Shown one piece after another: positions 7,042-47,045 of a DNA stretch of 64,000 nt; the stretch's first letter is position 1; each line of letters opens with the position of its first letter. The notes beneath the pieces were generated by a model. The model had not been told where the DNA came from, did no database searches, and saw only the letters and a program-made list of their open reading frames with translations. The stretch comes from Escherichia phage CMS-2020a. The stretch lies in sequence record CP053388.1. One strand, given 5' to 3'. Made by a program: the position numbers and the translations under genes.

Positions 7042-7083
7042 GTTGAATATGCTCCTTGATTTGGCGGGCTATCCTTGCCCGCC

Positions 7084-7104
7084 ATTAAGTAAATACTTAC
7101 CTAT
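7084..7104. promoter_or_regulatory. motif B palindrome
   Basis: attaagtaaatacttacctat between J and tail fibre genes. Confidence 0.5.
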
Positions 7105-7134
7105 TTTTACCGATATAAAATTTTTTTTCCACCA

Positions 7135-10100: not shown

Positions 10101-11868
10101 CTGTAATTGTCCAGACACCGTTCAAAACAGGCGTTTCCGCTGACGACAGGGCTTTTGAAAACGTAACCTTTGTTATGTTTTCGCCAGTTTCAAGAACATC
10201 GCGTTCAACGATTTTGCCTTCCTGATTCAGTATTCGAATAAAGCAGCCGCCTTTGGCTAACGACACCGGCGCATCGAGTGTGACGCTGTTTTTGGTAAAC
10301 GCCACAATTCGACCTGAGTTACGTTTGCCTGCGCGATATTTGTTCTGAATCAGAACGGTTTCACCAGGCATCAGAAATGACGCGTCTAAGCCGGCAGTAA
10401 ATGTAATTACATCCGACTCCATTCTGGCGGTATATAAAAGCCACAAACCAACTCGGTGAGCCTGCCCTCGGCTTGTACAGCCAAATGCTACGACTTCTGT
10501 CTTACGCTCACCATAACGGCGCATTGCGTCCTGATCTTCAACGTACTCGATGTTTTGCTTATAACCGTCCTCCTTGTTGTTGTAGGTTACGAGCGCAACG
10601 GATGGGCGATCTTTACGCGCAGAACCTTTATAGGTAAACAATCCATCTTTGACGTTAGAGTTGGTAAACATCATTACCGGATCTGATGGGCTATCCTGCA
10701 TGATGTTAACCATGCCACCAGCCCAAAACACCATACCGCGGAATGCACCGGCAATATCCTGAATTAATCGGTATGCGTCCTGTCGACTGGTGATCTGCGT
10801 ATTGATTGCAAAGCGTTTCTCTTTACCACCAAAGCCATCATCAACCTCTTCGTCACAATATCGACCGATCTGGTATAGCTGGCCGAGGTCAATCATAGAT
10901 TCCGACACATACTGACCAAGGCCATATCGAGCATTGGTAAGCAAATCAAAGAGAATCCACGCGGGGTTTGAAGAAGACAACAGCTTAAAAGTGCCATCCC
11001 ATACACCATCATAAGTGTTGCTGGCCTCGTTGTAGTTTGACGGCACGCGAATTTTTAATCCACGTACCAAATACGAACGAGATGGCATGGTGCTACCAAA
11101 CTGCTCAGAATTAACCTTCAGACCCACCAGCACAGAGTTTGGGTAGTTCATCGGTGTATCTACAATCTCACCTATTGAGTCCACCCATGTATCGTTATAG
11201 AGATACTGGCTGCTGTTATCATCGGTAATACGGACTACACGAACCTTGTACGCGCGTCCAGGCTTAGGCAGCTTCAGCTCATAGCTACGGTAATAAACAC
11301 CTGTCTTCTTTGCTGTTAGCTTAATGCCAACGCTTTTTTCACCTTCTGCGACCACATCTACAAATGTTGAGTCGCCATTTGCTATCTGGAACTTGTACTC
11401 AACGGTTGTACCGTTCGTGTCACCAGTTTTTTTATCTATGCTTCGCAAAGAAGGAAACTTCATGATGACACGAACCCGATCAGCTTCATCGTTATCGATT
11501 GAAACCGTTACATAATGTGTTTTTTTTAACTGGATATTGACGGATTTAGGCGTTTCAACGAAATCAAAGCCAGACATTGGAGTCTGGTCTTGCGAACCGT
11601 CGCGAAAATCCCATGTGATTCCGCTGAAGTTGGAGGAACCGTCTTCATTTACAATCGGCAGATCGTCGACAAAAATAGATCTTGCGCCATTTACCAAGCC
11701 GCCAATTACACCTTCCCCAAGAAGATCGAGGATAGCGGCCATTGCACGAGAATTTACGGTATCGTCGGCTTCAACCGGTGTACGGCTAGAGCTTTTGCTG
11801 CTTTTTTTACCACCCGCACCTGCAATAAACAGCGGTAACTTTTTCTTCTTGAACTGTTCCATGTTCAA
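7135..11868 (-). CDS. tail tip / host specificity protein (lambda J-like) with inserted coiled-coil repeat stalk
   Basis: 1577 aa; N-terminal region alignable to lambda J; about 10 tandem ~37-aa repeats of the ITQLxSKVxxDIxAAIxxEQEARxxxDxAL type. Confidence 0.9.
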   Translation of the reverse strand: MNMEQFKKKKLPLFIAGAGGKKSSKSSSRTPVEADDTVNSRAMAAILDLLGEGVIGGLVNGARSIFVDDLPIVNEDGSSNFSGITWDFRDGSQDQTPMSGFDFVETPKSVNIQLKKTHYVTVSIDNDEADRVRVIMKFPSLRSIDKKTGDTNGTTVEYKFQIANGDSTFVDVVAEGEKSVGIKLTAKKTGVYYRSYELKLPKPGRAYKVRVVRITDDNSSQYLYNDTWVDSIGEIVDTPMNYPNSVLVGLKVNSEQFGSTMPSRSYLVRGLKIRVPSNYNEASNTYDGVWDGTFKLLSSSNPAWILFDLLTNARYGLGQYVSESMIDLGQLYQIGRYCDEEVDDGFGGKEKRFAINTQITSRQDAYRLIQDIAGAFRGMVFWAGGMVNIMQDSPSDPVMMFTNSNVKDGLFTYKGSARKDRPSVALVTYNNKEDGYKQNIEYVEDQDAMRRYGERKTEVVAFGCTSRGQAHRVGLWLLYTARMESDVITFTAGLDASFLMPGETVLIQNKYRAGKRNSGRIVAFTKNSVTLDAPVSLAKGGCFIRILNQEGKIVERDVLETGENITKVTFSKALSSAETPVLNGVWTITEPDLEPMRVRIVNIAQGETPGSFDITAVENNPSKYEAIDNGATLIPQNTTVLDPTYSKPSNLQITEGTYLSSPGNLSVKLTATWEGKSPEYWISWRRSDENNVSNWQSARVTEEQYEIVNVAENGRYDFQLYAVSFNGKKTEIISTVYQVLGTMTPPDSPTSLTAVGDYRNVILNWVNPDSVDLDHINVYASQTNNLDTAKLIAESASTTFTHAGLGDSETWYYWVRASNKRGMLSPPNSNLGTEATTRDVLSFLTGKITSSELGQALLEDINSKASQEAVDELNEHINQSVESLEGAVNDVKEDIAELDKQFSDNLADFEIKFNERSDALENAQTELKGEVSATIDKVNEAFEKIDATDAAIVEIENTVSEHDKALANTVEAIKAARDEAAALIAKESEARVEGDAANAKQLEVLQSTVEESSAAVEEMKKTVAEVDRASAELTTNIEALAKTNIDLALRQDEDQHKQMVNNAKIATTQKTFADDMSAIATKVEEIRVEIGEDIKASILEESTARADGDEALAKRVTQLQSKFEGDISAAISTEQEARTSADEALTTQITQLESKVSNDIVAAIKEEQEARATEDSALASQITQLQAKVDDDISAAIRSEQEARASGDSALAKQINQLQSKVDGDISAAITQEQEARASADQALSREINSLRAQTGTDIAAAVAVETKARTDADSALSTQITSLTAKANDLEASLARETTARADGDTALTKEVSSLKAQTAKDISAAVAVETQARTDADSALSSQITKLTSQYKEDIKAAVATETKTRTEQDAALATQITNLESQTAANISAAVTTETTARTQADNALSGRIDTLKAEVDGNTATIQQQATAIADTNKKVSTAWTLKMETSTSGGQKYVAGIALGIDTTGLSQFLVQADRFGLVNSVNGKITTPFVIENSIAYMNGAYIKDGTITNAKVGDLQSTNFVSGRSGWRFGKNGTLEINGNSGGNGRLVINGQRIDVYDDNNVLRVRIGRL
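7670..8750 (-). repeat. tandem ~111-bp coding repeats (coiled-coil heptad array) inside J-like gene
   Basis: Repeating gcctcctgctc... units visible in DNA; protein repeats EQEARA(S/T)xDxAL. Confidence 0.7.
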
Positions 11869-11880
11869 AAAAATCCTTGT

Positions 11881-12474
11881 TTACATTAGCTGGTCAATCG
11901 TGATTGAAGAACTCACAACCTGTGAGCCAACCAGAATTTCCTCGCCATAGATAAGTTGTACTGGGTTGCCCTGGTTTTCTGTATTTTGAGGGCCGTCGAA
12001 ATAATAAGAGTTCGAGTTATCTGCCTGTCTCACACTTTCGTTAGTGGCTTGCGGCGATATGATTTGTGATATGCCGCCCATCATCAGTGACAAACCGAGA
12101 GGTGCTAAAGCAGGCATCACTACCGCCGATACAACCAACAAAGCGGCCCCTACTACCGTCTGAAACCACCCAAAAGCAGATCCACCGCTTCCTCGCGGAA
12201 CAGGTGTAATGCGGATTTTGGCAATGTTGTCAGACTGCCCCATCATCTGATATTCACTTTCGTCAACAGACCACTTGTGGCCCTGTTTATTGGTGATCTG
12301 GATGTGGTAACGGTCATAGGTTTTGATATTGCGCTTCATCCATGCTTTAAACCCAGGCTTGTTGGCCTCAATTAAATCCAGAGCCTGTTTTGTATTGCGC
12401 ACCTTTAGATGCCAGTGGCGGCCAAAATGTTTGGCCATAGGGCCGCCAAGCTGCACATGAACTAACTCAGACAC
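11881..12474 (-). CDS. tail assembly protein (lambda I-like)
   Basis: 197 aa, C-terminal hydrophobic Gly-rich segment; position between K and J. Confidence 0.75.
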   Translation of the reverse strand: MSELVHVQLGGPMAKHFGRHWHLKVRNTKQALDLIEANKPGFKAWMKRNIKTYDRYHIQITNKQGHKWSVDESEYQMMGQSDNIAKIRITPVPRGSGGSAFGWFQTVVGAALLVVSAVVMPALAPLGLSLMMGGISQIISPQATNESVRQADNSNSYYFDGPQNTENQGNPVQLIYGEEILVGSQVVSSSITIDQLM

Positions 12475-34956: not shown

Positions 34957-35421
34957 ATGAAGTCTCCCATACTGTTCACTTTCTGTTCTAAAACTATCAT
35001 GAAATACTCGCTTCTCCCTCTACTAACGTTACCAGTGTTGATGCTTACCGCGTGCCAATCACGCCCAATATCAATCCATGACGCCAAACCAGCACCGCAG
35101 GCCAAAGTGTTCAAGTATCAAAGCGCAGCGCCAGCTACGTTGGTGGTAATGAGAGACACAGGTTTTGTAGGAGCTGGATGTGATGCTTCCATTTTCATCA
35201 ACGGCGAAACTGTCGCAAAACTGGCTACAGGCGAAAAAGCGACTTTCCATTTAAATGCCGGAGTATTAATTGTGGGTGCATCTCTTGAAGGTGCAGGTTT
35301 ATGTGCTCTAAACCCCGCTCGTCAAGAGCGAGAAACGACTCTGAAGAATGGAGACACAAAAGCGTTCAGGGTGTTCACCAGCAATTCTGGTGACATCGAC
35401 ATTCTGCCAACAACTCTGTGA
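34957..35421 (+). CDS. putative lipoprotein
   Basis: GGGAG RBS; signal peptide with LTAC lipobox. Confidence 0.55.
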   Translation: MKSPILFTFCSKTIMKYSLLPLLTLPVLMLTACQSRPISIHDAKPAPQAKVFKYQSAAPATLVVMRDTGFVGAGCDASIFINGETVAKLATGEKATFHLNAGVLIVGASLEGAGLCALNPARQERETTLKNGDTKAFRVFTSNSGDIDILPTTL

Positions 35422-35425
35422 TGAC

Positions 35426-35950
35426 ATGACAACCAAAGATATTACCTACGGTATCCAAGCTGAACTCTGGCCGCGAGATTACACTAACGTTGAAAAACTA
35501 CTGATGTTCTGGCGCAGAGAACAAATTCCTGTAAGGGTCACTCTCGAAGATGGCCAGGCGTTTTGCATGTACGTTTATGGCCTCATGCCATCTCGTAACA
35601 AAGTTGACCTTTGCCCAGCCCCTTTTGACAAAGAAAATCGTATAAGGCTCCCACTTGAACGCATTAGTACAATTGAATCAGGTGTGGTTGACAGTATCGC
35701 TCACGATTTCAAAGGTCGACTAACAGTTCACCCTGATTATGTCGATAATCGGCCATCACGCCGCGATTTTTTTGCAATTTGCAACCAAGCCTACAAAGCA
35801 AACAAATCTATAAGGGTGTACATGGCGGATGGCCGTGAAATTGAGGGGGTGTCAGCAGGTGCAGATGCTTGTCAGGTTACACTACGTGTCGAGAACGGTA
35901 GAAAAATAGTTGTTTTGTTCGATTGGGTTGAACGAATTTTGCCTTTTTGA
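35426..35950 (+). CDS. hypothetical protein
   Basis: ORF starting MTTKDITYG after lipoprotein stop. Confidence 0.45.
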   Translation: MTTKDITYGIQAELWPRDYTNVEKLLMFWRREQIPVRVTLEDGQAFCMYVYGLMPSRNKVDLCPAPFDKENRIRLPLERISTIESGVVDSIAHDFKGRLTVHPDYVDNRPSRRDFFAICNQAYKANKSIRVYMADGREIEGVSAGADACQVTLRVENGRKIVVLFDWVERILPF

Positions 35951-35953
35951 GTT

Positions 35954-36262
35954 ATGAAATCGATATTGTTACCACCATTATTTTTACTTTGCTCAGTTGC
36001 AGCAAATGCAATGGACTATAAGCCTGTCATTCAGTCGCTGATGAATGACGTGTGCTCAACGTCTCAGAATGTATCAGTTTGCATGTATCAATTTTCGGCA
36101 GCCGTAAAAGCAGGAAAAGCGATAGGCGAGAATGTGGAACTGTGTAAGAAAGTGGCAAATGAAGAACGGGCAATGTTGGATTGCGAATCTAGCGAGTCAT
36201 CGGCACAGTTCGTTGATGCGCTATTTGACACCAATCGTAAGGCTGTAGAGTCTGTTCAATAA
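35954..36262 (+). CDS. small secreted Cys-containing protein
   Basis: N-terminal signal peptide, several Cys. Confidence 0.5.
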   Translation: MKSILLPPLFLLCSVAANAMDYKPVIQSLMNDVCSTSQNVSVCMYQFSAAVKAGKAIGENVELCKKVANEERAMLDCESSESSAQFVDALFDTNRKAVESVQ

Positions 36263-36274
36263 ATCTATAAGGTT

Positions 36275-36306
36275 AATAACCGGCTAAGTCCGGTTATTAT
36301 TTTTCA
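36275..36306 (+). terminator. rho-independent terminator
   Basis: aataaccggctaagtccggttatt followed by T-run. Confidence 0.7.
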
Positions 36307-36453
36307 CATCACTTCTTTATATCTACAAATCAAATAACCTAAATATATATAAGGTCTAAAGCCGCAATCGATTATTTATTTAGGGAACACCTTCGACGAT
36401 CTCGCTTTTATTTCTAGGACTTTCATCCCTGCAAAAAATTTTAAAAAAAACAC

Positions 36454-36481
36454 TTGCAATCTTTTTTCGTATATCGATAAT
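36454..36481 (+). promoter_or_regulatory. sigma70-type promoter candidate for 36547-37701 cassette
   Basis: TTGCAA, 16-bp spacer, GATAAT; A/T-rich upstream tract. Confidence 0.45.
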
Positions 36482-36546
36482 TGAACTCGTCGAAAGCGAA
36501 GACGCTAACGACAATAAATTTTAAATTTACATAAGGAAAAATCATC

Positions 36547-37197
36547 ATGGCTAACATTATCATTTCTAAAAAATCCATCGTTGAAGCTGCTTCCATTGTA
36601 TCCGATGAACTGCGCGAAAAAGCAGATCTGGCAACTCAAACATACAACGAACATTATAAAAATGGTACGCACACTAAAGCAGACAAAGCAAATATGCAAG
36701 CTGCGACCACTAAACTAGCTTACTTCATCAACAACGTTGTAAACGCTGTAGAAGACGAAAAATTGTGCTCTGTTTTCTACTATGCGATTAAAGCAAGCAA
36801 ACAAGCGCCAGAAGTATTTTTTCGTGATGCAATGACTAATAGTTATTCTCTGGAAAAACTGGTTTATCTGGTTAAATCAATTAAATCTGGTAAATGCATT
36901 TATTCCATCGCTGATATGTCTGGATCTCGTGTATTCGCTTTAATCGATATGATTAACGACGAGATCGACACGTTCACCAATGGCGCTGTTTTCGATTTAA
37001 TGAATGAAGCTAAAAAAGCGTGTGAAATTAAATTGGACGCTGGCTATACTCAAGCCAACCAGTTGATCAATCTTTGCGAACGTCTCGGACTTGTTGAAAA
37101 AGTCAAAGGAGCTGGGAGCGCCAAAGCTGGTACACAGCAATATCGCTTTATCAAGAATGATTTCTACAATTATTTAGCTGATGCTTTTAAAGCGTAA
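36547..37197 (+). CDS. hypothetical protein (cassette gene 1)
   Basis: 216 aa, strong RBS TAAGGAAAAA. Confidence 0.6.
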   Translation: MANIIISKKSIVEAASIVSDELREKADLATQTYNEHYKNGTHTKADKANMQAATTKLAYFINNVVNAVEDEKLCSVFYYAIKASKQAPEVFFRDAMTNSYSLEKLVYLVKSIKSGKCIYSIADMSGSRVFALIDMINDEIDTFTNGAVFDLMNEAKKACEIKLDAGYTQANQLINLCERLGLVEKVKGAGSAKAGTQQYRFIKNDFYNYLADAFKA

Positions 37198-37245
37198 TTA
37201 ATGGAATCAAGCGCCCACAATGGGCGCTTTAAAGGAGCTTTAAAG

Positions 37246-37449
37246 ATGGTCAGCTATGACAAGATCCGCGCAGAATATCGCGCAAATTATCGCGCTTATA
37301 AACTGGAATTAATCGACGATTTGATCGCGCAACGCGACCAATTAAATTTTACGTTTTCTGATTTGCTTAACAGCAAGCGAGATTGCAAGCGCAAACGTGA
37401 ATACTTACGCTTAAGCGCATTAATCGGAAAACTTCAAAATTCTATTTAA
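37246..37449 (+). CDS. hypothetical small protein (cassette gene 2)
   Basis: AAGGAG RBS, preceded by hairpin agcgcccacaatgggcgct. Confidence 0.45.
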   Translation: MVSYDKIRAEYRANYRAYKLELIDDLIAQRDQLNFTFSDLLNSKRDCKRKREYLRLSALIGKLQNSI

Positions 37450-37470
37450 TTTTTTTTAAGGAGCTTAATC

Positions 37471-37701
37471 ATGTTTGTTCTTATCGCTGGCGTTAACGTC
37501 CATAATGAATATTATGTTAATCGCATCGCTGGGATCGCTGGTTACGCTGGGCGCGTAGTCGAGCTTATAGACGAAACGACGCGCAAAATTGACTTATTGA
37601 GCGACCAGGAGCGAAAAAAAGCAGACGTGAACGACGCTGATATATTTTTAATGTTAAAAGCGTTCGTAGAAATGGGATTTAAAATCAGTTTACACAAATA
37701 A
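37471..37701 (+). CDS. hypothetical small protein (cassette gene 3)
   Basis: AAGGAG RBS; followed by terminator. Confidence 0.45.
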   Translation: MFVLIAGVNVHNEYYVNRIAGIAGYAGRVVELIDETTRKIDLLSDQERKKADVNDADIFLMLKAFVEMGFKISLHK

Positions 37702-37705
37702 AATC

Positions 37706-37731
37706 GAGCGCCCACTATGGGCGCTTTTTTC
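37706..37731 (+). terminator. rho-independent terminator
   Basis: agcgcccactatgggcgct plus TTTTTT. Confidence 0.75.
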
Positions 37732-37751
37732 GTTTCCAATACACCTACCAT

Positions 37752-37777
37752 AACGCGCCAATGATGGCGCGTTTTTA
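37752..37777 (+). terminator. second tandem terminator hairpin
   Basis: aacgcgccaatgatggcgcgttttt. Confidence 0.6.
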
Positions 37778-38317
37778 TTGTCTTTAACTCACTCCAACAA
37801 CATAAAAATAAGCGCCAAAATAACGCCATAGACGCGCTTTTATATCCTTACCAGTACATGCCCATTACTTAACACATTAACGCGCTTAAAACGCGTTATA
37901 TTGCGCTATAGAGTATGGTTAATCATTGGCTTTTAGTCTTGCTATGTGATCCGCGCTTATTTGTCGGTGCGGATCGGTATTTTGTTTTGTTCTGTATCCG
38001 CTCGCGTATTATGTGCGCGTGATTTTTCACTTAATCACACCACTTAATCACGTATGTGATTATGCTACGAAAGAAATCTGGATGTCTCAGGTGACGAAAG
38101 TCATCATAATTTTCCCCGCTCACCTGTCCGACAACCGCTGGTTGGATTCCACCAGCTTCCCGATGTTTTTTCTACACAAAGGCGAATGCAGCCGTTTCCC
38201 GAAAAAATCCTGGCCGTTCCCCCGTCGGCTCATGAATACGTTCCTCGCCGCTTCTGAAAATTTCCCTGCGGCAGCTGGTGGCTATAGAGAAAGGGCCGTT
38301 TCTGGCCCTCTTCTCAG

Positions 38318-38800
38318 TTACACGCCATCAAGGATGTGGATGCGGTTGCTTGCGTATACATTCAGCATAAAGTTAGCGCAAAACAGTTTCCATGTATCAA
38401 CGCCAGCGGTATACGTAATGTTTTTGCATTTAATCGCATTGTTGGCGATCCGCATCCCCTGCGATACTGCTTCATCGTCGGAAAATTTGAACGACGATTG
38501 AGTTTTAATCCAGACAGAAATCTGCGTAGCGAACTCAATCAGCTTGGACTGGCAGAATCGCCCGGAGCGCACCGGAAAGACGAACGTTCCGAATCCAGAA
38601 TTTACCACATATGCTTTCTCAAATACCCTCGAGTAACGACGATTGCCAATGATGTCGCGTGCAATAATGCATTTTTCTTGTGCTGACAGTTCTACCGTCT
38701 CATTGTCGCGCCATGCACCAAGTACTCGTTTTTCAATGTCAGAGAACGTTACAGCGATATTGCCATGTGCGGGTGCGTTTACAGTAGCGATAAAATTCAT
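38318..38800 (-). CDS. hypothetical protein
   Basis: 160-aa ORF with TAAGGAA RBS and motif A upstream. Confidence 0.5.
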   Translation of the reverse strand: MNFIATVNAPAHGNIAVTFSDIEKRVLGAWRDNETVELSAQEKCIIARDIIGNRRYSRVFEKAYVVNSGFGTFVFPVRSGRFCQSKLIEFATQISVWIKTQSSFKFSDDEAVSQGMRIANNAIKCKNITYTAGVDTWKLFCANFMLNVYASNRIHILDGV

Positions 38801-38821
38801 GATTAATTCCTTATCGTAAAT

Positions 38822-38842
38822 AACAAATTGTTTTCTTGTTGG
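38822..38842. promoter_or_regulatory. motif A
   Basis: aacaaattgttttcttgttgg about 20 nt upstream of ATG. Confidence 0.55.
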
Positions 38843-38882
38843 TGTTAATTATCGTTGTACGAATAAGGCGTCAAAGTGGAAA

Positions 38883-38955
38883 GTTGCGGTAGCCGGACGG
38901 GAACAGGTGGGTTTGTCGGTTGCCTGGAGGTAAGAGGTTGGTGTTTTTAGCCTGC
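38883..38955. repeat. ~75-bp GT-rich repeat, copy 1
   Basis: About 75% identical to 42055-42130 (cggtagcc..aggtgggt..tcggt.gcctg..aagaggttggt). Confidence 0.6.
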
Positions 38956-39002
38956 GGGAAACAAGATGGTCATTTAAGGCCACCAATGCTGATGGCCTTA
39001 AT

Positions 39003-39148
39003 AATTATCGCACGATTACGCTAAGGATCTTTTCCTCAACTGATTTGTTGTTGCGACTAAACTGCCTTGCGTATCTGATGACAGAAGAGGCGTTTTGCTT
39101 TCTGACCATCTCGGCTCTTTCCTTCAGGCGTTTCTTGAAATCGCCCAT
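39003..39148 (-). CDS. hypothetical small basic protein (not in ORF track)
   Basis: 47-aa ORF MGDFKKRLKERAEMVRKQNASSVIRYARQFSRNNKSVEEKILSVIVR. Confidence 0.25.
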
Positions 39149-39150
39149 AT

Positions 39151-39525
39151 TTACCACCAGGCGCAGAAGGTCAGTCTGTTATTGTGAAAGTCGTGGTTCT
39201 TAATCAGATCTTCCACAAGCTCTTTCAACTGCCCCACATCATGCCAGTAACCTTCATCGTACTCCTGACTGCCGAAGAAAAAACCTTCCCGGGTAGGCAA
39301 GTACTCTTCGCAATTACTTTCGTTTATGTGCATCAAATGAGCCTTCAGAAAACAAATGTCATTCATCGTTAATTCTAAAAGCTCACAATTTTCGACTTCA
39401 CCTACGTTGCGCTCCATCCACCCAACGAGCGCATTGAACTTACGGAAGTAAGCAACCTGCTTTCTGGATGCCTCGTTATTCAGATCGTTTTTAGGCTGTG
39501 TCTCGATATAGATATCAAGTCCCAT
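39151..39525 (-). CDS. hypothetical protein
   Basis: Start MGLDIY with AAGGAA RBS. Confidence 0.5.
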   Translation of the reverse strand: MGLDIYIETQPKNDLNNEASRKQVAYFRKFNALVGWMERNVGEVENCELLELTMNDICFLKAHLMHINESNCEEYLPTREGFFFGSQEYDEGYWHDVGQLKELVEDLIKNHDFHNNRLTFCAWW

Positions 39526-39582
39526 GATGGTTTCCTTATTAAGTTGCTTCAGTGAAATCATTTTCACAAATCAGATAAGGCA

Positions 39583-39600
39583 GAAAACAAATTGTTATCG
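39583..39600. promoter_or_regulatory. motif A
   Basis: gaaaacaaattgttatcg. Confidence 0.5.
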
Positions 39601-39634
39601 GGCTTAATAAAATGGCGCGGTTTACGCGCCATTT
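39601..39634 (-). terminator. rho-independent terminator
   Basis: GC hairpin ggcgcg..cgcgcc with flanking T-run on minus strand. Confidence 0.6.
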
Positions 39635-39642
39635 AAAGAGGA

Positions 39643-40038
39643 TTAAGCGAATACGCTTTCAGGGATTAAGGTGTCGGCAGGAATGCCAGAGGTAATGCGC
39701 AGGCCGTACTGACCAATCCAGGTAGTGTTGGTATTCAGGTTGGAGGCGAATACGGTGTTAACCATATTCATCATGGTTTCAAACACCTCTTCATCAACCT
39801 GGCGGAAGTAGTTCTCGATTTTCAGCAGCAGCGGGTCAGTTGCATCGAGAATGGACTGGTATTGAGTCGCGTACTCGCCGTCGGAGGCATCACCTTTACG
39901 CACGATCGTACTGGCCTGGACTTCGGCACCAGTTTCGGTGTTGTACGTAACAACGGTGATTTTTGCCACATTCTTACCTTCGGCGGTTTCAGAGGCATAG
40001 TAAACATCAACTGTCAGTTTTTCGCGTTTAACGGTCAT
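39643..40038 (-). CDS. hypothetical protein
   Basis: Start MTVKREK with GGAGAG RBS. Confidence 0.5.
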   Translation of the reverse strand: MTVKREKLTVDVYYASETAEGKNVAKITVVTYNTETGAEVQASTIVRKGDASDGEYATQYQSILDATDPLLLKIENYFRQVDEEVFETMMNMVNTVFASNLNTNTTWIGQYGLRITSGIPADTLIPESVFA

Positions 40039-40074
40039 TTCACTCTCCGTAGTGTTTTGGTTATTTTTATATTC

Positions 40075-40102
40075 TATGATAGTAAGTATGTACTTACAAT
40101 AC
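40075..40102. promoter_or_regulatory. motif B palindrome
   Basis: tatgatagtaagtatgtacttacaatac between terminator and RBS. Confidence 0.5.
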
Positions 40103-40131
40103 AAAAAAGCCCCGTAAGGATGGCGGGGCTG
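40101..40131 (-). terminator. rho-independent terminator
   Basis: agccccg..cggggct hairpin followed by TTTTTT on minus strand. Confidence 0.7.
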
Positions 40132-40164
40132 TCGTACTGTCGACTAATTGCCACTTGCACATTA

Positions 40165-40476
40165 TCAGGCTATTGCCATCACTGATGCTCTCTGAATCTC
40201 TTGCTGGGCCACGCGGTTAACTTCCATCAAAGCCAGTTCGAGCTGATGTTCCGGCCACATTCTTTGAAATGCCACCCAGCCTTTTCCACGCTGGCGACGA
40301 ACATTCATTACATAACGAGTAAAGGTGTTTTTATCGAAAGACACCGCTGTTTCACGGAACAGACGAATAGAGGTTCCATTGGCAACGATGTCCAGCAAAG
40401 TTAATTGAGCAACCAGCGCAGGCTTCTCTTTTCTCTTCTGGTCTTTGTCCAGACCAAGAACCAATGATTTTTTCAT
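40165..40476 (-). CDS. hypothetical protein
   Basis: Start MKKSLVLG with GGAG RBS. Confidence 0.5.
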   Translation of the reverse strand: MKKSLVLGLDKDQKRKEKPALVAQLTLLDIVANGTSIRLFRETAVSFDKNTFTRYVMNVRRQRGKGWVAFQRMWPEHQLELALMEVNRVAQQEIQRASVMAIA

Positions 40477-40486
40477 TACAACTCCG

Positions 40487-40509
40487 TAAACAACTTGTTT
40501 TCTCAATGG
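40487..40509. promoter_or_regulatory. motif A
   Basis: taaacaacttgttttctcaatgg. Confidence 0.55.
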
Positions 40510-40629
40510 CGTAAATAATACCAGTAAGAAAACGGCTACAAAGCATATTGATCAGGTGCATGAGCGATATGCAGGTTCTTCCCTGCGGCTATAGAGAAAT
40601 TAAGCCAGCATTGCTGGCTTTGGTTGGGG

Positions 40630-40959
40630 TTACTCGAATACTTCAAGAAACTCCTGAACGTCCCAATGCTGGACGAGGTGAAGATAGACCTTAGAAATCA
40701 CGTCATTTTCGCTATCGCATGTGAAGTAGTACTTCTGGCTGCGGTTGTATGTGTCCACACAAAATTCGCTCATATCCATAAAGTCAGCATCTTCACCCAG
40801 GTCGCTGATCATCAAAGCAGGTGCGTCATCACGAGTCATCAGTTCCAGCACCCATCTTGAATTGATCAGAGTGGAAGACCAACCTTCTAACTCATAAAAC
40901 TGATCAAACTCTTTTTGAGTTAATTTCTTGATTTGGTTGATGTCGATATTTGTAAACAT
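40630..40959 (-). CDS. hypothetical protein
   Basis: Start MFTNIDIN with AAGGA RBS. Confidence 0.5.
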   Translation of the reverse strand: MFTNIDINQIKKLTQKEFDQFYELEGWSSTLINSRWVLELMTRDDAPALMISDLGEDADFMDMSEFCVDTYNRSQKYYFTCDSENDVISKVYLHLVQHWDVQEFLEVFE

Positions 40960-40971
40960 AAAGCAATCCTT

Positions 40972-40993
40972 AAACATGTTGTTTTCTTGATGG
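40972..40993. promoter_or_regulatory. motif A
   Basis: aaacatgttgttttcttgatgg. Confidence 0.55.
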
Positions 40994-41317
40994 TGTTATT
41001 ATCGCAATAACACACAGGCGGAAAAGGATTTTATTCCGGTGAATGTGGTTTTGGCAGTGAGTTTTCAGGTTCAGTACCGAGTACACTTTTTACATTATTC
41101 TGATTTAGTGGCCGAAAGTGGCTGGTGGCAGAGTAATCCTCTCCCCAAAAACCTACTGAAATCGATTGTGCCCCGTTGGCTGTCTGGCACAATTACGCTG
41201 TAGCTGGGCATTCAGAGGGAATCCAGCGGTAAGCAAGTCCGCCTACGTGAGCGCCTCTCTTCTTCCCGCACATTACAGGTGGGTAGCCGCAACTCTCCCT
41301 CTCGCTATACCGGTACG

Positions 41318-41475
41318 CCACCGTTCCTGAACCGGCATCGAGCCTTCTCCCGAAATCCACACAGGCAACTCGACCGTTTCTCTGAAAACCTCCAGCCGTT
41401 CCCCGAAGGCAACCCAGCCGTTTCTGTAGCGGGATGCAGCCTTTTCCCTGTATGGACCGAAGGCTGACCGTAGGG
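41318..41475. repeat. iteron-like array (6-7 degenerate ~22-bp direct repeats)
   Basis: Units cagccgtt(c/t)c..gaa at 41318, 41340, 41371, 41394, 41415, 41437. Confidence 0.6.
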
Positions 41476-42054
41476 GTGTTACGGGGGGATAAAATCAGGA
41501 GTTGAATAAATACGAAAAAGGAGGCGACACCTCTCCTTCCCTCCCCACTTATACATACCTGGCTTCTTCGCTATACATGTTGTGTTTTCTTCGTGTTTTA
41601 TCTGTCTCAACCTCTCTATAGGCGTTAATGCTCACTCCTTCCAGAACGTTCTATACGGCGACTATTTCTGTTGGTGAATTGGGTGTGTTGTTTTCTCTGT
41701 CGGTGTATGTGGTTTCGTTCGTTTTGCGGTGGTTCTTCTAGGGGGTGTTCTCGTCGTTTTGGTGATTGTTCTTCTCCATGTATGGAGTAATGGCAGGTGG
41801 GCGATTCCTTTCGTTGTTGTGTTTGAGTTGTTTGTCTGGAGTGCGTGAAGGGCTTTTGTAGTTATTCGTGTATTGGGTAATGGCGTTTCCCGTGATTGTT
41901 ATGTTTCGTGTCTTTTGGGATTGAGAGAATCCTTGTGGTTACAGGCTTCGTTGGGGTTTCAGTGATTCTGGTGTTTCTTCGCTGTTTGGGTAATGGCCTG
42001 TCGTGGGTATCGCGCGTATGAATGTTTTCGGATTGCCTGTGAAAGTTAGGTTGG

Positions 42055-42130
42055 TTGTCCGGTAGCCTGGGGAGAAGAGGTGGGTCTTTTCGGTAGCCTG
42101 CCATAAAGAGGTTGGTTGTTTTTGGGAATG
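42055..42130. repeat. ~75-bp GT-rich repeat, copy 2
   Basis: Paralogous to 38883-38955. Confidence 0.6.
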
Positions 42131-42512
42131 GCATGTGTGTTATTTAGTTGTTTTGTTATACCTGAAAATGAGTTGTTTATATGGTTGTGTAACGCAACGG
42201 GAGCGATTTTGAGCGTGTGTTTTTGTTGGTAGTGTGTTGGGTCGTCTGTGGTGAAAATTGGACGCTGTGGCGCTGTCTGCTGCGTAGAGTTACGGGTATA
42301 AGAAGTGATGTGTGAAAACGTCAATTTTTTAGACCAAATCGGGTGAAAGCGTTGACGTTTCGTTGATCTGTTATTTAGTTGTTTTCTTATTTGTATAAAC
42401 AACCATAACCTATTGATATTTAAAGATATGATTGCAGCTATGGAAGGGGAGTAGTGGCGATCAACGGATTCTTATAGAAAAGAATCAAATTGTGACCGCC
42501 ATTATCAATGTT

Positions 42513-43247
42513 TTACATAGTTTTGTTTAGCAGAGAGAGAATTTCATCACTAATTTCACTCGCCTGTTTTATAGCCAATGCAGTTACCTCTTCTATGGTT
42601 GGTGACTGTTGATGCTCATGTTTGGTTTCAGTTATGACAATGTGTTCTTCACCTGAATTTGCGCATAGTGCCGCATTGACGATAAGGTTTGAGTAAGAAT
42701 TTAGCAGAGCACTGTTGATAAACGCTTTCACGGTATTACTGTCTGCACCAAATACATCTTTTCTGACCGCTTCAGCCTCACAGCGAACCCCTGCAGCAAC
42801 ATCGTGAAGAACATGTATGGCCTTGGGGCTTGTTTGTTCACAGTACTCAATCATTATTGTCGAATTGTTCTGTTCAACAAACGATCTGATGCCTGACGAT
42901 TCACCCATAGCATCGAAGGCAGCGTGACCCGCACTGGTAGAGATATCTTCATAGAGTTCTTCATCGCTATCTTTTTCTTCAGGTGTCGAGGTGTCTTCAT
43001 CGTCGTAATAGATATTGCCTTTAATCAGTGTTTTGGACACTTGATATAAACAATAAGAAACGAGATTTAAGCATTGGATTTTAGCTGTATTGTCCTTTGT
43101 CGCCTCGCTCTTCAGTTCTTTCGCTTCTTCAGTAAGGCTGTTGATAAGACTTTGTATTTTTTCCAACGCGTTAGGCGCACACTCCGCGTTGTCCATAAAG
43201 AATTTATAACCAGTCCCAGGGATTTCTAAACTTTTCAACTTTTTCAT
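42513..43247 (-). CDS. hypothetical protein
   Basis: 244-aa acidic ORF. Confidence 0.5.
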   Translation of the reverse strand: MKKLKSLEIPGTGYKFFMDNAECAPNALEKIQSLINSLTEEAKELKSEATKDNTAKIQCLNLVSYCLYQVSKTLIKGNIYYDDEDTSTPEEKDSDEELYEDISTSAGHAAFDAMGESSGIRSFVEQNNSTIMIEYCEQTSPKAIHVLHDVAAGVRCEAEAVRKDVFGADSNTVKAFINSALLNSYSNLIVNAALCANSGEEHIVITETKHEHQQSPTIEEVTALAIKQASEISDEILSLLNKTM

Positions 43248-43292
43248 TTCTTTGATAATCCTAAAAACAAACTACCAATGCTTTAATATCTG

Positions 43293-43592
43293 TTACCAGT
43301 TCCAGCACTCAAGCCCTTCAACGACTGGTGCTCCACAATCAAAATGTACAGAGTCAAAGCCTACATCAAGTACTTTCTGAATGTTAGCAATCGCGCCTTC
43401 GGATATACCATATCGACGCAAGTCGTCTTTCCAGACATCATCCTGTAACCCGGCGTGAACAATACAACCGCCATCAATTTGTGAAACCCAATCCAGCTCA
43501 TTGCTTGCGATCATGAATCGGCGAGCATCTTCCTCTGATGTATGAGATGAACTGATCAATGCCACCTGGTAGGCTTGGGTAATGTTCAACAT
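43293..43592 (-). CDS. hypothetical protein
   Basis: 99 aa; GGAG RBS; two motif A copies upstream. Confidence 0.5.
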   Translation of the reverse strand: MLNITQAYQVALISSSHTSEEDARRFMIASNELDWVSQIDGGCIVHAGLQDDVWKDDLRRYGISEGAIANIQKVLDVGFDSVHFDCGAPVVEGLECWNW

Positions 43593-43604
43593 TTCAACTA
43601 CTCC

Positions 43605-43629
43605 AAAACAAGTTGTTTTCTTATGTGGC
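43605..43629. promoter_or_regulatory. motif A
   Basis: aaaacaagttgttttcttatgtggc. Confidence 0.6.
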
Positions 43630-43646
43630 TTATTATCTCAATCAAC

Positions 43647-43675
43647 AAAAGGTAGAAAACAAATTGTTTTAGGGC
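43647..43675. promoter_or_regulatory. motif A variant
   Basis: aaaaggtagaaaacaaattgttttagggc; candidate -10 GATAAT lies between the two copies. Confidence 0.5.
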
Positions 43676-43704
43676 TTGTGTAAATCAGGAGGGATTGTGT
43701 CTAT

Positions 43705-43736
43705 ATGAAAATGCCCGGCGTGTTGCCGGGCATTGT
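43705..43736 (-). terminator. metG terminator hairpin
   Basis: aatgcccggc..gccgggcatt just after the metG stop. Confidence 0.5.
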
Positions 43737-43753
43737 GAAAAATGGTTGTTTAG

Positions 43754-45787
43754 TTACTTAACTTGGTGGCCTGGTTTAGCACCAGCATCCGGGCTTAACA
43801 GGAAGATATCTTTTCCGCCAGGGCCAGCAGCCATCACCATGCCTTCGGAGATACCGAAGCGCATTTTACGCGGTGCCAGGTTAGCCACCATAATGGTGTG
43901 ACGACCAATCAGTGCCTGTGGATCTGGATAAGCGGAACGAATGCCTGAGAAGACATTACGTTTTTCTCCGCCGAGATCCAGTGTCAGGCGCAGCAGTTTG
44001 TCAGAACCTTCGACAAACTCCGCGTTTTCAATCAGCGCCACACGCAGGTCAACTTTGGCGAAGTCGTCAAAGGTGATGGTTTCCTGAATCGGGGCGTCAG
44101 CCAGTGGGCCAGTTACCGGTGCAGCTGTGGCTTTCACTTCTTCTTTGGATGCTTCCACCAGTGCTTCCACCTGTTTCATATCGATACGGTTATACAGTGC
44201 CTTGAACGGATTCACTTTATGGCCCAGCAGCGGTTGCTGGATACCATCCCAGGTCAGTTCTGTATTCAGGAATGCTTCTGCACGTTCAGTCAGTTTCGGC
44301 AGTACCGGTTTCAGGTACGTCATCAGCACGCGGAACAGGTTAATGCCCATAGAGCAAATCGCCTGCAGATCGGCATCGCGTCCTTCCTGCTTCGCCACCA
44401 CCCACGGAGCCTGTTCATCAACATAGCGGTTAGCCAGGTCAGCCAGTGCCATGATTTCACGGATAGCTTTGCCAAATTCGCGGCTTTCCCATGCTTCGCC
44501 AATCACTTCAGCGGCATCAGTAAAGGTTTTGTACAGTTGCGGGTCAGCCAGTTCGCTTGCCAGCACGCCGTCAAAACGCTTGTTGATAAAGCCTGCATTA
44601 CGGGAGGCCAGGTTAACCACTTTGTTCACGATATCGGCATTCACGCGCTGAACGAAATCTTCCAGGTTGAGATCGATATCATCAATGCGCGAAGAGAGTT
44701 TCGCAGTGTAGTAGTAACGCAGGCTGTCGGCGTCAAAATGATTCAGCCAGGTGCTGGCTTTAATAAAGGTGCCGCGAGACTTGGACATCTTCGCACCGTT
44801 CACCGTCACATAGCCATGAACAAACAGGTTGGTCGGCTTGCGGAAGTTGCTGCCTTCTAGCATGGCAGGCCAGAACAGGCTGTGGAAGTAAACGATATCT
44901 TTGCCGATGAAGTGGTACAGCTCGGCGGTGGAGTCTTTCTTCCAGTATTCGTCGAAGCTGGTAGTGTCGCCGCGTTTGTCGCACAGATTCTTGAAGGAAC
45001 CCATGTAGCCAATCGGCGCGTCCAGCCAGACGTAGAAGTATTTGCCCGGTGCGTTCGGAATTTCAAAACCGAAGTAAGGTGCGTCACGGGAGATATCCCA
45101 CTGTTGCAGGCCAGATTCAAACCACTCCTGCATTTTGTTTGCCACCTGCTCCTGCAACGCACCGCTGCGGGTCCATGCCTGCAACATTTCGCTGAAAGAA
45201 GGCAGATCAAAGAAGAAGTGTTCGGAATCACGCATTACCGGTGTAGCGCCAGAAACTACCGATTTCGGCTCGATCAGTTCCGTCGGGCTGTATGTCGCGC
45301 CGCAGACTTCACAGTTATCGCCGTATTGATCCGGCGCTTTACATTTCGGGCATGTGCCTTTTACAAAACGGTCCGGCAGGAACATGCCTTTTTCCGGGTC
45401 GTACAGCTGAGAGATGGTGCGGTTTTTAATAAAACCGTTCTCTTTCAGGCGAGTGTAGATAAGCTCGGACAACTGACGGTTCTCTTCGCTGTGCGTCGAG
45501 TGATAGTTGTCATAGCTGATGTTAAAGCCTGCGAAATCAGTCTGATGTTCCTGACTCATTTCGCCAATCATCTGCTCCGGTGTGATACCAAGCTGCTGTG
45601 CTTTCAGCATGATCGGCGTACCGTGGGCATCGTCGGCACAGATGAAATTAACCTCGTGGCCGCGCATTCGCTGGTAACGAACCCAGACATCAGCCTGGAT
45701 GTGCTCCAGCATATGGCCGAGGTGGATTGAGCCGTTAGCGTACGGCAGCGCGCACGTCACCAGAATTTTCTTCGCGACTTGGGTCAT
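43754..45787 (-). CDS. metG: methionyl-tRNA synthetase
   Basis: Start [25 protein letters not shown] (HIGH motif), KMSKS motif, C-terminal tRNA-binding domain; matches enterobacterial MetG as recalled from memory. Confidence 0.97.
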
Positions 45788-45944
45788 AGTAGGCATTACT
45801 TCTTTGTAGTGAAAAGGGGCTTGATAGTAACAAAATGGCCTTATGTCTGCCATGTGATAACAGCATTTCTCATAAATGATTAAATGTCGTAGCTGGAGTA
45901 CACTACAAGGCGACAATTGCGCAAATTAAAATAAAGGAGACGGG

Positions 45945-47045
45945 ATGAGCGAGTCCAAATCGCCGGATGCCCTGAGAGCAATGGTAGCCGGTACGCTGGC
46001 TAATTTTCAGCACCCAACCCTGAAACACAACCTGACTACGCTTAAAGCGTTACACCATGTTGCGTTGATGGATGACACACTGCATGTCGAACTAATCATG
46101 CCTTTCGTGTGGAATAAGCCTTTTGAAGACCTGAAAGAGCAATGTAGTGGTGATCTGCTCCGTATCACTGGCGCAAAGGCTATTGACTGGAAGCTGTCGT
46201 ACAACATTGCCACGCTTAAGCGTGTCAAAAACCAACCAGGCATTAATGGCGTTAAGAACATTATCGCCGTCAGCTCAGGCAAGGGCGGCGTGGGTAAATC
46301 CTCCACGGCGGTAAACCTGGCACTGGCGTTGGCTGCTGAAGGTGCGAAAGTTGGTATTTTGGATGCCGATATCTATGGTCCATCAATTCCAACCATGCTG
46401 GGCGCGGAAAACCAACGTCCAACCTCACCTGACGGTACTCACATGGCACCTATCATGTCTCATGGCCTGGCAACCAACTCTATTGGTTATCTGGTCACCG
46501 ACGACAATGCAATGGTGTGGCGTGGACCGATGGCCAGCAAGGCGCTGATGCAGATGTTGCAGGAAACATTGTGGCCTGATCTGGACTATCTTGTTCTCGA
46601 TATGCCGCCGGGCACTGGTGATATTCAGTTGACGCTGGCGCAGAACATTCCTGTAACTGGTGCTGTTGTGGTAACTACGCCGCAAGACATCGCGCTGATC
46701 GATGCGAAGAAAGGCATTGTGATGTTCGAAAAAGTCGAAGTGCCGGTACTGGGTATCGTTGAAAACATGAGTGTGCATATTTGCAGTAACTGCGGTCATC
46801 ACGAGCCAATTTTTGGCACCGGTGGCGCACAGAAACTGGCCGAGAAATACAACACGCAGTTGTTAGGCCAAATGCCACTTCATATCTCTCTTCGTGAAGA
46901 TCTGGATAACGGAACACCAACCGTTATTAGTCGTCCAGATAGCGAATTTACAGCTATTTATCGTGACCTCGCAGATCGCGTTGCCGCCCAAATGTATTGG
47001 CAAGGTGAAGTAATACCTGGCGAAATCGCATTCCGCGCAGTGTGA
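45945..47045 (+). CDS. apbC: Fe-S cluster carrier ATPase ApbC/Mrp
   Basis: P-loop SGKGGVGKSS and CxxC motif; divergent from metG with AAGGAG RBS, the native enterobacterial arrangement. Confidence 0.95.
   Translation: MSESKSPDALRAMVAGTLANFQHPTLKHNLTTLKALHHVALMDDTLHVELIMPFVWNKPFEDLKEQCSGDLLRITGAKAIDWKLSYNIATLKRVKNQPGINGVKNIIAVSSGKGGVGKSSTAVNLALALAAEGAKVGILDADIYGPSIPTMLGAENQRPTSPDGTHMAPIMSHGLATNSIGYLVTDDNAMVWRGPMASKALMQMLQETLWPDLDYLVLDMPPGTGDIQLTLAQNIPVTGAVVVTTPQDIALIDAKKGIVMFEKVEVPVLGIVENMSVHICSNCGHHEPIFGTGGAQKLAEKYNTQLLGQMPLHISLREDLDNGTPTVISRPDSEFTAIYRDLADRVAAQMYWQGEVIPGEIAFRAV

Follow-up and report, generated by a model that had tools for sequence, protein, structure and literature searches.

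Positions 41040 to 42500 of the DNA analyzed here, a 64,000-nucleotide stretch of Escherichia phage CMS-2020a (sequence record CP053388.1; hereafter the window), appear to encode no protein, which raises the question of what such an interval does in the element that carries it. The segment from 41000 to 42520 shares 96% identity with Escherichia phage Cyrano and 98% with the E. coli plasmid NZ_CP082122, and it is 66 to 77% identical to plasmids of Salmonella, Enterobacter, Klebsiella, Citrobacter, and Cronobacter and to Salmonella phage SSU5. Because of these identities, we assign the window to an SSU5-type phage-plasmid. A preliminary description of the locus had noted an interval free of open reading frames (ORFs) with an iteron-like array and a strong GT skew, and had proposed a replication origin, a partition site, or a long noncoding RNA read from the minus strand. 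Our analysis indicates that the region is a cis-acting, noncoding control module of SSU5-type phage-plasmids whose function is unproven. Tentatively, we favor a phage-mode (lytic or secondary) origin or control region that would be activated by transcription, in the manner of oriE and oriF of phage T4.

The ORFs within 41040 to 42500 are only 41 to 118 amino acids (aa) long, and a search for a hidden gene among relatives revealed none: in 21 diverse homologues, the longest stop-free stretches vary in position, frame, and strand. The region has neither a period-3 nor a period-10.5 signal. PGAP/RefSeq annotation of the region holds only the entries "none" or hypothetical protein, and the hypothetical coding sequence (CDS) listed for it in NZ_CP082122 is a 244-aa gene whose end overlaps the query. 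The annotators of Cyrano and PhiR41_1 called two hypothetical CDSs inside the region, and these ORFs are not conserved. A scan of 36000 to 47000 with Rfam 15 in E-value mode returned just two chance-level matches, both outside the region; a tRNA scan of the region returned none, and no description of the region was found in the searchable literature on SSU5, pHCM2, and Cyrano.

The module could be aligned in 839 plasmid records (from Klebsiella, Escherichia, Enterobacter, Salmonella, Citrobacter, and Cronobacter) and in phage SSU5. Among 5426 complete E. coli genomes, 239 (4.4%) carry it on plasmids and 0 carry it on the chromosome. Homologous loci comprised about 50 obtained from IMG/VR via a conserved 15-mer and 77 more obtained via a neighboring 160-aa protein (38318 to 38800). 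Conservation is fairly even along the region, and the 66 to 68% DNA identity to the Salmonella clade is about equal to that of the neighboring genes. The layout is kept in 64 of 76 loci from relatives: an A+C-rich segment of 688 to 898 bp on the gene-sense strand is followed, about 100 to 250 bp downstream, by an array of direct repeats (array A) and then by a second array (array B) directly after the 160-aa gene. The other 12 loci lack the tract. Six of them are interrupted by contig ends, one (L203) retains a truncated version, and five others remain. In two of these (L180 and L198), the region is gone within deletions of about 18 to 35 kb that removed many accessory genes too, the early promoter box near window position 41000 being joined directly to sequence that lies 18 to 35 kb further on in the reference; in the other three (L200, L205, and L169), the region is simply missing at the expected position.

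The largest part of the module is a strand-asymmetric tract of 730 bp (41665 to 42394) whose plus strand is 73% G+T (G 32%, T 41%, A 15%, and C 12%), with a GC skew of up to +0.50 and an AT skew down to −0.60. The tract is the strongest compositional outlier of the 64 kb: its segment score is 226, and the runner-up, counting skews of either sign, scores 43. The strong skew reported in the preliminary description was thus confirmed, at a length shorter than the roughly 800 bp given there. The flanking genes all lie on the minus strand; this strand elsewhere has more G than C, a relation that is reversed within the tract. A minus-sense RNA of the tract would consist of 41% A, 32% C, 15% U, and 12% G and would be nearly unfoldable, because A and C cannot pair with each other. 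Its minimum free energy is −85 kcal/mol (−0.117 per nucleotide [nt]), compared to −223 ± 21 kcal/mol in 42 other 730-nt minus-sense windows (z of +6.7). The plus-sense RNA, at −179 kcal/mol, is unremarkable.

The composition of the tract is equal in all clades at about 34% divergence. Since G↔T exchanges are the biggest substitution class and transitions make up only 38% of the differences, the composition fits selection on base class, and a mutational cause of the skew, by deamination of the exposed strand, was ruled out on the same grounds. With sliding RNAalifold, no 150-nt window of either strand reached a structure conservation index of 0.4, and there was hence no indication of a structured RNA. 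Counts of AANAANAA, of ARN/AAN runs, and of ACA and YC were not above those of mononucleotide shuffles in five clades; an Hfq/CrcZ-type sponge and a MazF (ACA) decoy were rejected on these counts. Among the trinucleotide words on the G+T-rich strand, only TTC and TCT show a mild enrichment, which GTC and CTG lack; this lends no support to primase sites.

The second characteristic part is iteron array A (41316 to 41451, plus strand), which comprises six direct repeats with the consensus CCAGCCGTTTCCC(T)G. The 17-mers start at 41316, 41338, 41369, 41391, 41413, and 41435 and are thus spaced by 22, 31, 22, 22, and 22 bp, and the array recurs with identical spacing in relatives of all clades. The window has 12 matches to CCKTTYCYS, and five of them lie inside 128 bp, an interval in which about 0.015 would be expected. 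Iteron array B (38187 to 38310, plus strand) has the same motif and orientation and, at a distance of 3 kb, immediately follows the 160-aa gene; its best site, TGCAGCCGTTTCCCGAA, is at 38187, with weaker copies at 38209, 38243, and 38291. Array B is present in relatives of all clades and is retained even in variants without the main region. In every clade, arrays A and B have like orientation, lie 1.5 to 4 kb apart, and flank the same gene block. When about 98 kb of the 98%-identical plasmid were scanned with a weight matrix of this iteron motif, only these two arrays gave matches. A search for iteron pairs in one genome per species gave only chance matches among the matches listed, the pattern being too degenerate.

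The tract itself contains repeats of several kinds. A repeat search identified three dispersed 28-bp repeats (41772 to 41799, 41862 to 41889, and 41975 to 42002, plus strand) with the core RGTAATGGC, which occurs at 41786, 41876, and 41989 and in a degenerate fourth copy, GGGAATGGC, at 42124 to 42132. The core is found six times in the window, compared to 0.75 expected, and relatives have 2 to 6 copies in an orientation that is always constant. Three tandem 31-bp units, CGGTAGCCTG...AAGAGGTGGGT, occupy 42029 to 42122 (plus strand), with starts at 42029 (degenerate), 42060, and 42091; their pattern, CGG(T/A)(A/T)GCCTG-N8-(A)AGAGGT(G/T)GGT-T-rich, is strongly conserved in the alignment. A second copy, of two units with a period of 30, lies at 38885 to 38948 (plus strand), just upstream of the promoter of the 160-aa gene, and the segments 42050 to 42130 and 38878 to 38958 are identical in 54 of 83 columns (BLAST E value of 5e-4). 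All five elements of the preliminary description (absence of a gene, iterons, skew, motifs, and duplication) were thus confirmed, and the coordinates given there are right to within about 20 bp. Of the findings that it named as refuting its proposals, neither was made, as no hidden gene emerged and the repeats are conserved in relatives. Array B and the unit copy at 38885 to 38948 flank the 160-aa gene, a pairing that is kept in all clades, including the deletion variants.

The iteron spacings of 22 and 31 bp and the 31-bp period of the units correspond to two and three helical turns and are kept in relatives. All sites therefore point to the same side of the duplex, a classic signature of protein-DNA binding that has no rationale for an RNA, and the phased repeat arrays suggest that protein binds here on DNA. 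Sliding RNAalifold found no consensus RNA fold for array A on either strand, with a consensus energy near zero.

Two hairpins mark the boundaries, and both fold on the minus strand only because their stems rely on G·U pairs. Hairpin H3 (41514 to 41541), at the downstream (left) end of the tract, is terminator-like, with a G-rich 5′ arm and a C/U-rich 3′ arm (alifold energy of −5.9 versus 0.0 on the plus strand). In the window's clade the stem is followed by a U-rich run; an invariant TATAAG (41548 to 41553) lies just upstream, and one pair of the stem shows eight AU↔GC double changes. Hairpin H1 (42456 to 42500), located on the right boundary directly behind the upstream gene's stop codon, has the outer stem GGCGGUCA/UGAUCGCC with a conserved G·U pair (−7.6 versus 0.0) and is constant although the upstream gene varies among relatives from 186 to 1200 nt. 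The inverted repeat H2, GAAAACGTCAA-N27-TTGACGTTTC (42314 to 42361), has a conserved loop, AGACCAAATC, and a bulge in the stem in other clades; it does not discriminate between the strands and may represent either an operator or a hairpin in RNA. A weak, putative leftward promoter (42295 to 42324, minus strand) combines a −35 element TTGACG (42324 to 42319), a spacer of 17 to 18 nt, and a −10 element TTATAC/TATACC (42301 to 42295). Of 19 distinct homologue rows, 18 retain the candidate −35 element, GGTATAAG is conserved, and the skew begins at this site. A consensus terminator scan detected no strong intrinsic terminator after the upstream gene.

Between the iterons and the tract lies an A+T-rich segment of about 30 bp (41489 to 41519), which has a conserved core, CTTGAATWWATACG, and is a putative unwinding element. 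To the left of the array, the interval from 41040 to 41290 is more variable. It holds an exact Chi octamer in a conserved block (41121 to 41128, plus strand) and a hairpin (41166 to 41192); SSU5 and the Enterobacter relative have other sequence in its place.

The module also contains matches to a palindromic box, GAAAACAA-N-TTGTTTTC, with half-copies at 42379, 42148, and 41688 and a near-complete box at 42164. A 22-nt repeat, TGTTATTTAGTTGTTTTGTTAT (42138 to 42159, plus strand), adjoins this operator-like box (42164 to 42178), and its second copy (42369 to 42390, plus strand) is 95% identical; on the minus strand this second copy reads AAGAAAACAACTAAATAACA, a half-copy of the box found after the −10 element of early promoters. 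In the window as a whole, the box occurs at about 12 places (29450, 29475, 38821, 39585, 40488, 40972, 42164, 43606, 43657, 51930, 56471, and 57200), with 21 matches on both strands compared to 1 expected. At several early genes of the minus strand, a −10-like GATAAT precedes the box by about 10 nt, and the Shine-Dalgarno sequence follows closely. The box looks like a master repressor operator or a leader element shared by an early regulon.

Which function would unite these parts? The element has its plasmid replicon elsewhere. RepA of Cyrano (CYRAN_63) is encoded about 33 kb away, with its own iterons, CTATAGTGGAT (21-bp period), on both sides, together with GATC clusters and DnaA-box-like TGTGGATAA. 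This true plasmid replicon, with RepA between two sets of CTATAGTGGAT iterons of about 21 bp, corresponds to 10143 to 12432 of locus L209 (Cyrano 50001 to 89000); other replicon and toolkit coordinates are 4413 to 5486 and 6760 to 7788 in locus L130. The element further encodes a gp32-like single-stranded-DNA-binding protein (SSB), a RecA family protein, UvsY, an RNase H (RNase HI), a DnaB-like helicase, a primase, a ligase, and a DNA polymerase III alpha subunit. Judged from these predicted proteins, it carries a T4-style recombination-replication toolkit in a siphovirus phage-plasmid. At the origins of T4, promoter transcripts persist as R-loops that are processed by RNase H, and oriE contains evenly spaced direct repeats, iterons whose role is unproven (PMC3016281). 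We rank a phage-mode origin first, with the caution due to a tentative proposal, because the protein set is T4-like and because T4 origins are fired from R-loop transcripts, oriE with evenly spaced repeats.

The course of events that we infer, from transcription at a promoter through R-loop formation and protein binding to origin activity, would be as follows. A promoter at the right end (about 42295 to 42400) would send RNA polymerase leftwards, in the direction of all neighboring early genes. The polymerase would traverse about 750 nt of untranslated sequence that appears to have been selected to be mostly A and C in the RNA, such that neither the RNA nor the displaced DNA strand would fold. 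The A/C-rich RNA would tend to remain hybridized to its template as an R-loop. The transcript would then be terminated or processed at hairpin H3, beside the short A+T-rich segment and the six iterons, which, on one face of the helix, would bind a phage protein. Finally, the RNase H, gp32-like SSB, DnaB-like helicase, and primase of the element would convert the R-loop into a replication fork, as at oriF and oriG of T4.

Several observations weigh against such an origin. R-loops are usually favored by G-rich rather than C/A-rich RNA, and the distance of about 750 nt from the promoter to the iterons is far above that between promoter and DNA-unwinding element (DUE) at oriF and oriG. Analysis at the scale of the window showed no large origin-like switch of GC skew at the module, there is no DnaA box (TTWTNCACA) in 41000 to 42500, and the A+T-rich segment is merely about 30 bp long. 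A consensus scan called no sigma-70 promoter at the right end, including the candidate at 42295 to 42324. Covariation in H3 is weak (89% of cells paired, barely above shuffles, with mostly one-sided changes), and its U-tract is poor beyond the window's clade. We found no candidate iteron-binding protein, and the 160-aa neighbor has no structural relatives. Because some relatives exist without the region, the module appears to be dispensable for plasmid maintenance, as does the whole stretch that is deleted in L180 and L198. Lastly, C-rich, G-poor, untranslated RNA is a preferred substrate of Rho, and Rho removes R-loops (PMC6797219; PMC12360218).

A bolder form of the proposal, which we regard as rather unlikely, treats the tract as a cis element of a new type, in which one strand would be kept unpaired by being made almost exclusively of A and C. 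Selection would act on base class, with G↔T exchanges on the plus strand being neutral. The tract could then serve as a single-strand landing pad, in the nascent RNA or the displaced DNA, that loads a machine of the host or the phage (Rho, a helicase, an SSB, or a recombinase) beside the phased iterons and so couples transcription to the switch from plasmid to phage replication.

The main rival, which we hold with slightly less confidence than the phage-mode origin, is that a structure-free, C/A-rich noncoding RNA of about 0.75 to 0.9 kb is itself functional. In cis, it could be a very strong Rho-loading (rut) insulator or conditional terminator that keeps transcription of the variable cargo genes upstream from running on into the early genes downstream, except when an antiterminator intervenes; in trans, it could be a decoy or sponge for a single-strand RNA-binding factor, either Rho or a protein that recognizes GCCAUUAC(C) and CAGGCUACCG, with the iterons as a separate DNA site. 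Rho anchors to cytidine-rich motifs of nascent RNA (PMC6797219), and the sequence properties of a rut site (at least about 80 nt that are C-rich, G-poor, unstructured, and untranslated) extend over 730 nt of the tract, whose minus-sense RNA, with 32% C and 12% G, is the least foldable stretch of this length in the window. The constraint on composition combined with tolerance of A↔C exchange on the RNA, the boundary hairpins confined to the minus strand, and the oriented short motifs that recur 2 to 6 times point the same way. So does the lack of a strong intrinsic terminator past the upstream gene, and a right boundary that always adjoins variable cargo genes fits an insulator. However, a rut site requires about 80 nt and not 730 nt with conserved internal motifs, and the 31-bp unit period is a helical phasing of DNA that is meaningless for RNA. 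Hfq-type ARN/AAN runs, ACA, and YC are no more frequent than the composition predicts, no Rfam family matches, promoter and terminator are both weak by consensus, and the downstream genes have promoters and operator boxes of their own. The minus-strand noncoding RNA of the preliminary description is supported indirectly, by its exceptional freedom from structure, the constraint on composition, the one-strand boundary hairpins, and the minus-strand orientation of the flanking genes; it is neither a structured RNA nor a member of an Rfam family.

A regulatory or architectural platform acting on DNA only is a reading that we consider doubtful; the helical phasing of the arrays speaks for it. The iterons, the 31-bp units, the GTAATGGC repeats, and the operator half-sites would bind proteins of the phage-plasmid, such as the repressor, ParB/Srx-domain proteins, or a small early protein. 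By bridging arrays A and B into a loop, these proteins could silence the block of small early genes in between or set its timing; alternatively, the platform could be an accessory centromere or incompatibility locus. The bracketing of one gene block by two arrays of the same orientation in every clade, the persistence of array B in variants without array A, the duplication of the units just upstream of the promoter near 38885 to 38948, and the operator-like boxes in and around the region all agree with this, and two proteins with ParB N-terminal domains are encoded about 9 kb from the module. A platform of this kind leaves the G+T-richness of 730 bp on one strand and the one-strand boundary hairpins unexplained, and no binding protein was found. 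ParA and its partner are encoded elsewhere (29.3 to 30.3 kb in Cyrano and 30.2 to 31.2 kb in NZ_CP082122), and ParB-type sites are usually palindromes beside par genes. For the partition site of the preliminary description, nothing beyond the presence of repeats speaks in favor.

A plasmid (lysogenic) origin, or an incA-like copy-control array for RepA of the element, is very improbable. Six tandem iterons with a 22-bp period and an adjoining A+T-rich segment do resemble RepA-type origins, and relatives are typed IncFIB. Against this, RepA of Cyrano has its own CTATAGTGGAT iterons, GATC clusters, and TGTGGATAA boxes about 33 kb off, where the local motif is absent, the region lacks a DnaA box, and deletion variants without it persist; of the replication origin first suggested, only the phage-mode form is retained here. 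Equally improbable is a decayed or unusually encoded protein gene or a nonfunctional spacer, since the CDSs called in Cyrano and PhiR41_1 and the long stop-free stretches yielded by a U- and G-poor minus strand are set against ORFs that are not conserved in position, frame, or strand, no period-3 signal, no PGAP call, and a sequence whose motifs, repeat spacing, and composition are conserved across genera.

One locus related to the module has a different setting. L131, from the Klebsiella plasmid NZ_CP092410 (a 175-kb IncFIB/IncHI1B plasmid), contains at 4707 to 5470 a truncated copy of the module's right half, near genes for a DUF262 protein and for type I restriction-modification. The subsegment 42060 to 42388 in such large Klebsiella plasmids was rejected as an independent context, being a truncated remnant with unrelated coding-like sequence at its left. 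From the sequence, we read the left junction of the remnant as the end of an insertion sequence, and the remnant appears to be evidence of recombination between phage-plasmids and large plasmids.

The surroundings of the module provided further observations. The Chi octamer GCTGGTGG occurs 16 times in the window (11 on the minus and 5 on the plus strand; for example, at 1709, 10715, 26839, and 38149 on the minus strand and at 15137, 38274, and 41121 on the plus strand), ninefold above the 1.8 expected from shuffles and mostly co-oriented with genes; this enrichment may protect the element from RecBCD when it replicates as a rolling circle or in linear form. At 37700 to 37790, where plus-strand regulatory and minus-strand early genes converge, two GC-rich hairpins with T-runs, gagcgcccactatgggcgctttttt and gcgccaatgatggcgcgttttt, stand back to back and probably form a bidirectional terminator; one of them gave a sub-threshold Rfam match to Hrs1. 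A 200-aa protein encoded at 35348 to 35950 (plus strand) matches Pfam Flag1_repress (FljA, repressor of phase-1 flagellin) with an E value of 2.5e-84 and shows a faint Hfq-like match; this FljA-like posttranscriptional regulator of a phage-plasmid could silence host flagellin. To the right of the module, 43754 to 45916 (minus strand) is a full-length methionyl-tRNA synthetase gene and 45945 to 47045 (plus strand) a gene for an ApbC/Mrp-type iron-sulfur carrier ATPase. Elsewhere, Cyrano has genes for tRNA-Asn, tRNA-Thr, and tRNA-Ser.

SSU5-type phage-plasmids are common in clinical Enterobacteriaceae and carry resistance genes. Their plasmid replicon is known, and the module is a concrete candidate for the point that controls their switch to phage-mode replication and the timing of their early genes, conserved like the neighboring genes, without PGAP annotation, and equipped with phased sites and a structure-free tract. 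If it is a lytic origin, it would offer a handle on bursts of copy number, and with them on the dosage of resistance genes, as well as a marker of functional versus decayed elements. If its structure-free RNA loads or traps Rho or another factor, it would represent an unusual regulatory principle. The locus merits annotation under either reading.

How does the module compare with known systems? With the T4 origins it shares a noncoding transcript of the early region (here a predicted one), evenly spaced direct repeats, a position near a switch of the transcribed strand (37.7 kb in the window), and an element that encodes a gp32-like SSB, RecA/UvsX- and UvsY-like proteins, RNase H, helicase, and primase. 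It differs from them in that there is no sequence similarity; its iterons are about 15 bp long with a 22-bp period rather than 12 nt as in oriE, where they accompany an early promoter, its tract is about 750 nt long and A/C-rich in contrast to an A+T-rich DUE of about 50 bp downstream of the promoter, and it has no MotA-type promoter. The iteron plasmid origins (P1 oriR/incA, RepFIB, R6K gamma, and RK2 oriV) likewise have direct repeats of about two turns, a neighboring A+T-rich segment, and a second array kilobases away, but the module has no DnaA boxes and no adjacent rep gene, the proteins encoded on its flanks showing no Rep domain, and the RepA replicon with different iterons lies elsewhere. 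Rho rut regions and terminators such as lambda tR1 resemble it in their C-rich, G-poor, untranslated, and unstructured nascent RNA. The tract is, however, tenfold longer than a typical rut region, contains conserved oriented repeats, and is followed by iterons, and any termination in it is a prediction. Sponge RNAs (CsrB/RsmZ and CrcZ) are also long noncoding RNAs with repeated short motifs; the module, by contrast, has no GGA or ARN motifs above chance, its motifs do not lie in hairpin loops, and it has no known partner protein. In the vertebrate mitochondrial control region, a G+T-rich heavy strand lies beside a transcript-primed origin, and the skew is attributed to deamination of exposed single-stranded DNA. 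The module, too, has a strong one-strand keto (G+T) skew, but transitions are not its main substitution class, which points to selection on composition. Taken singly, the parts of the module (iterons and an untranslated, C-rich RNA) belong to known kinds, and it is their combination, together with a 730-nt tract conserved in base class, that is unusual.

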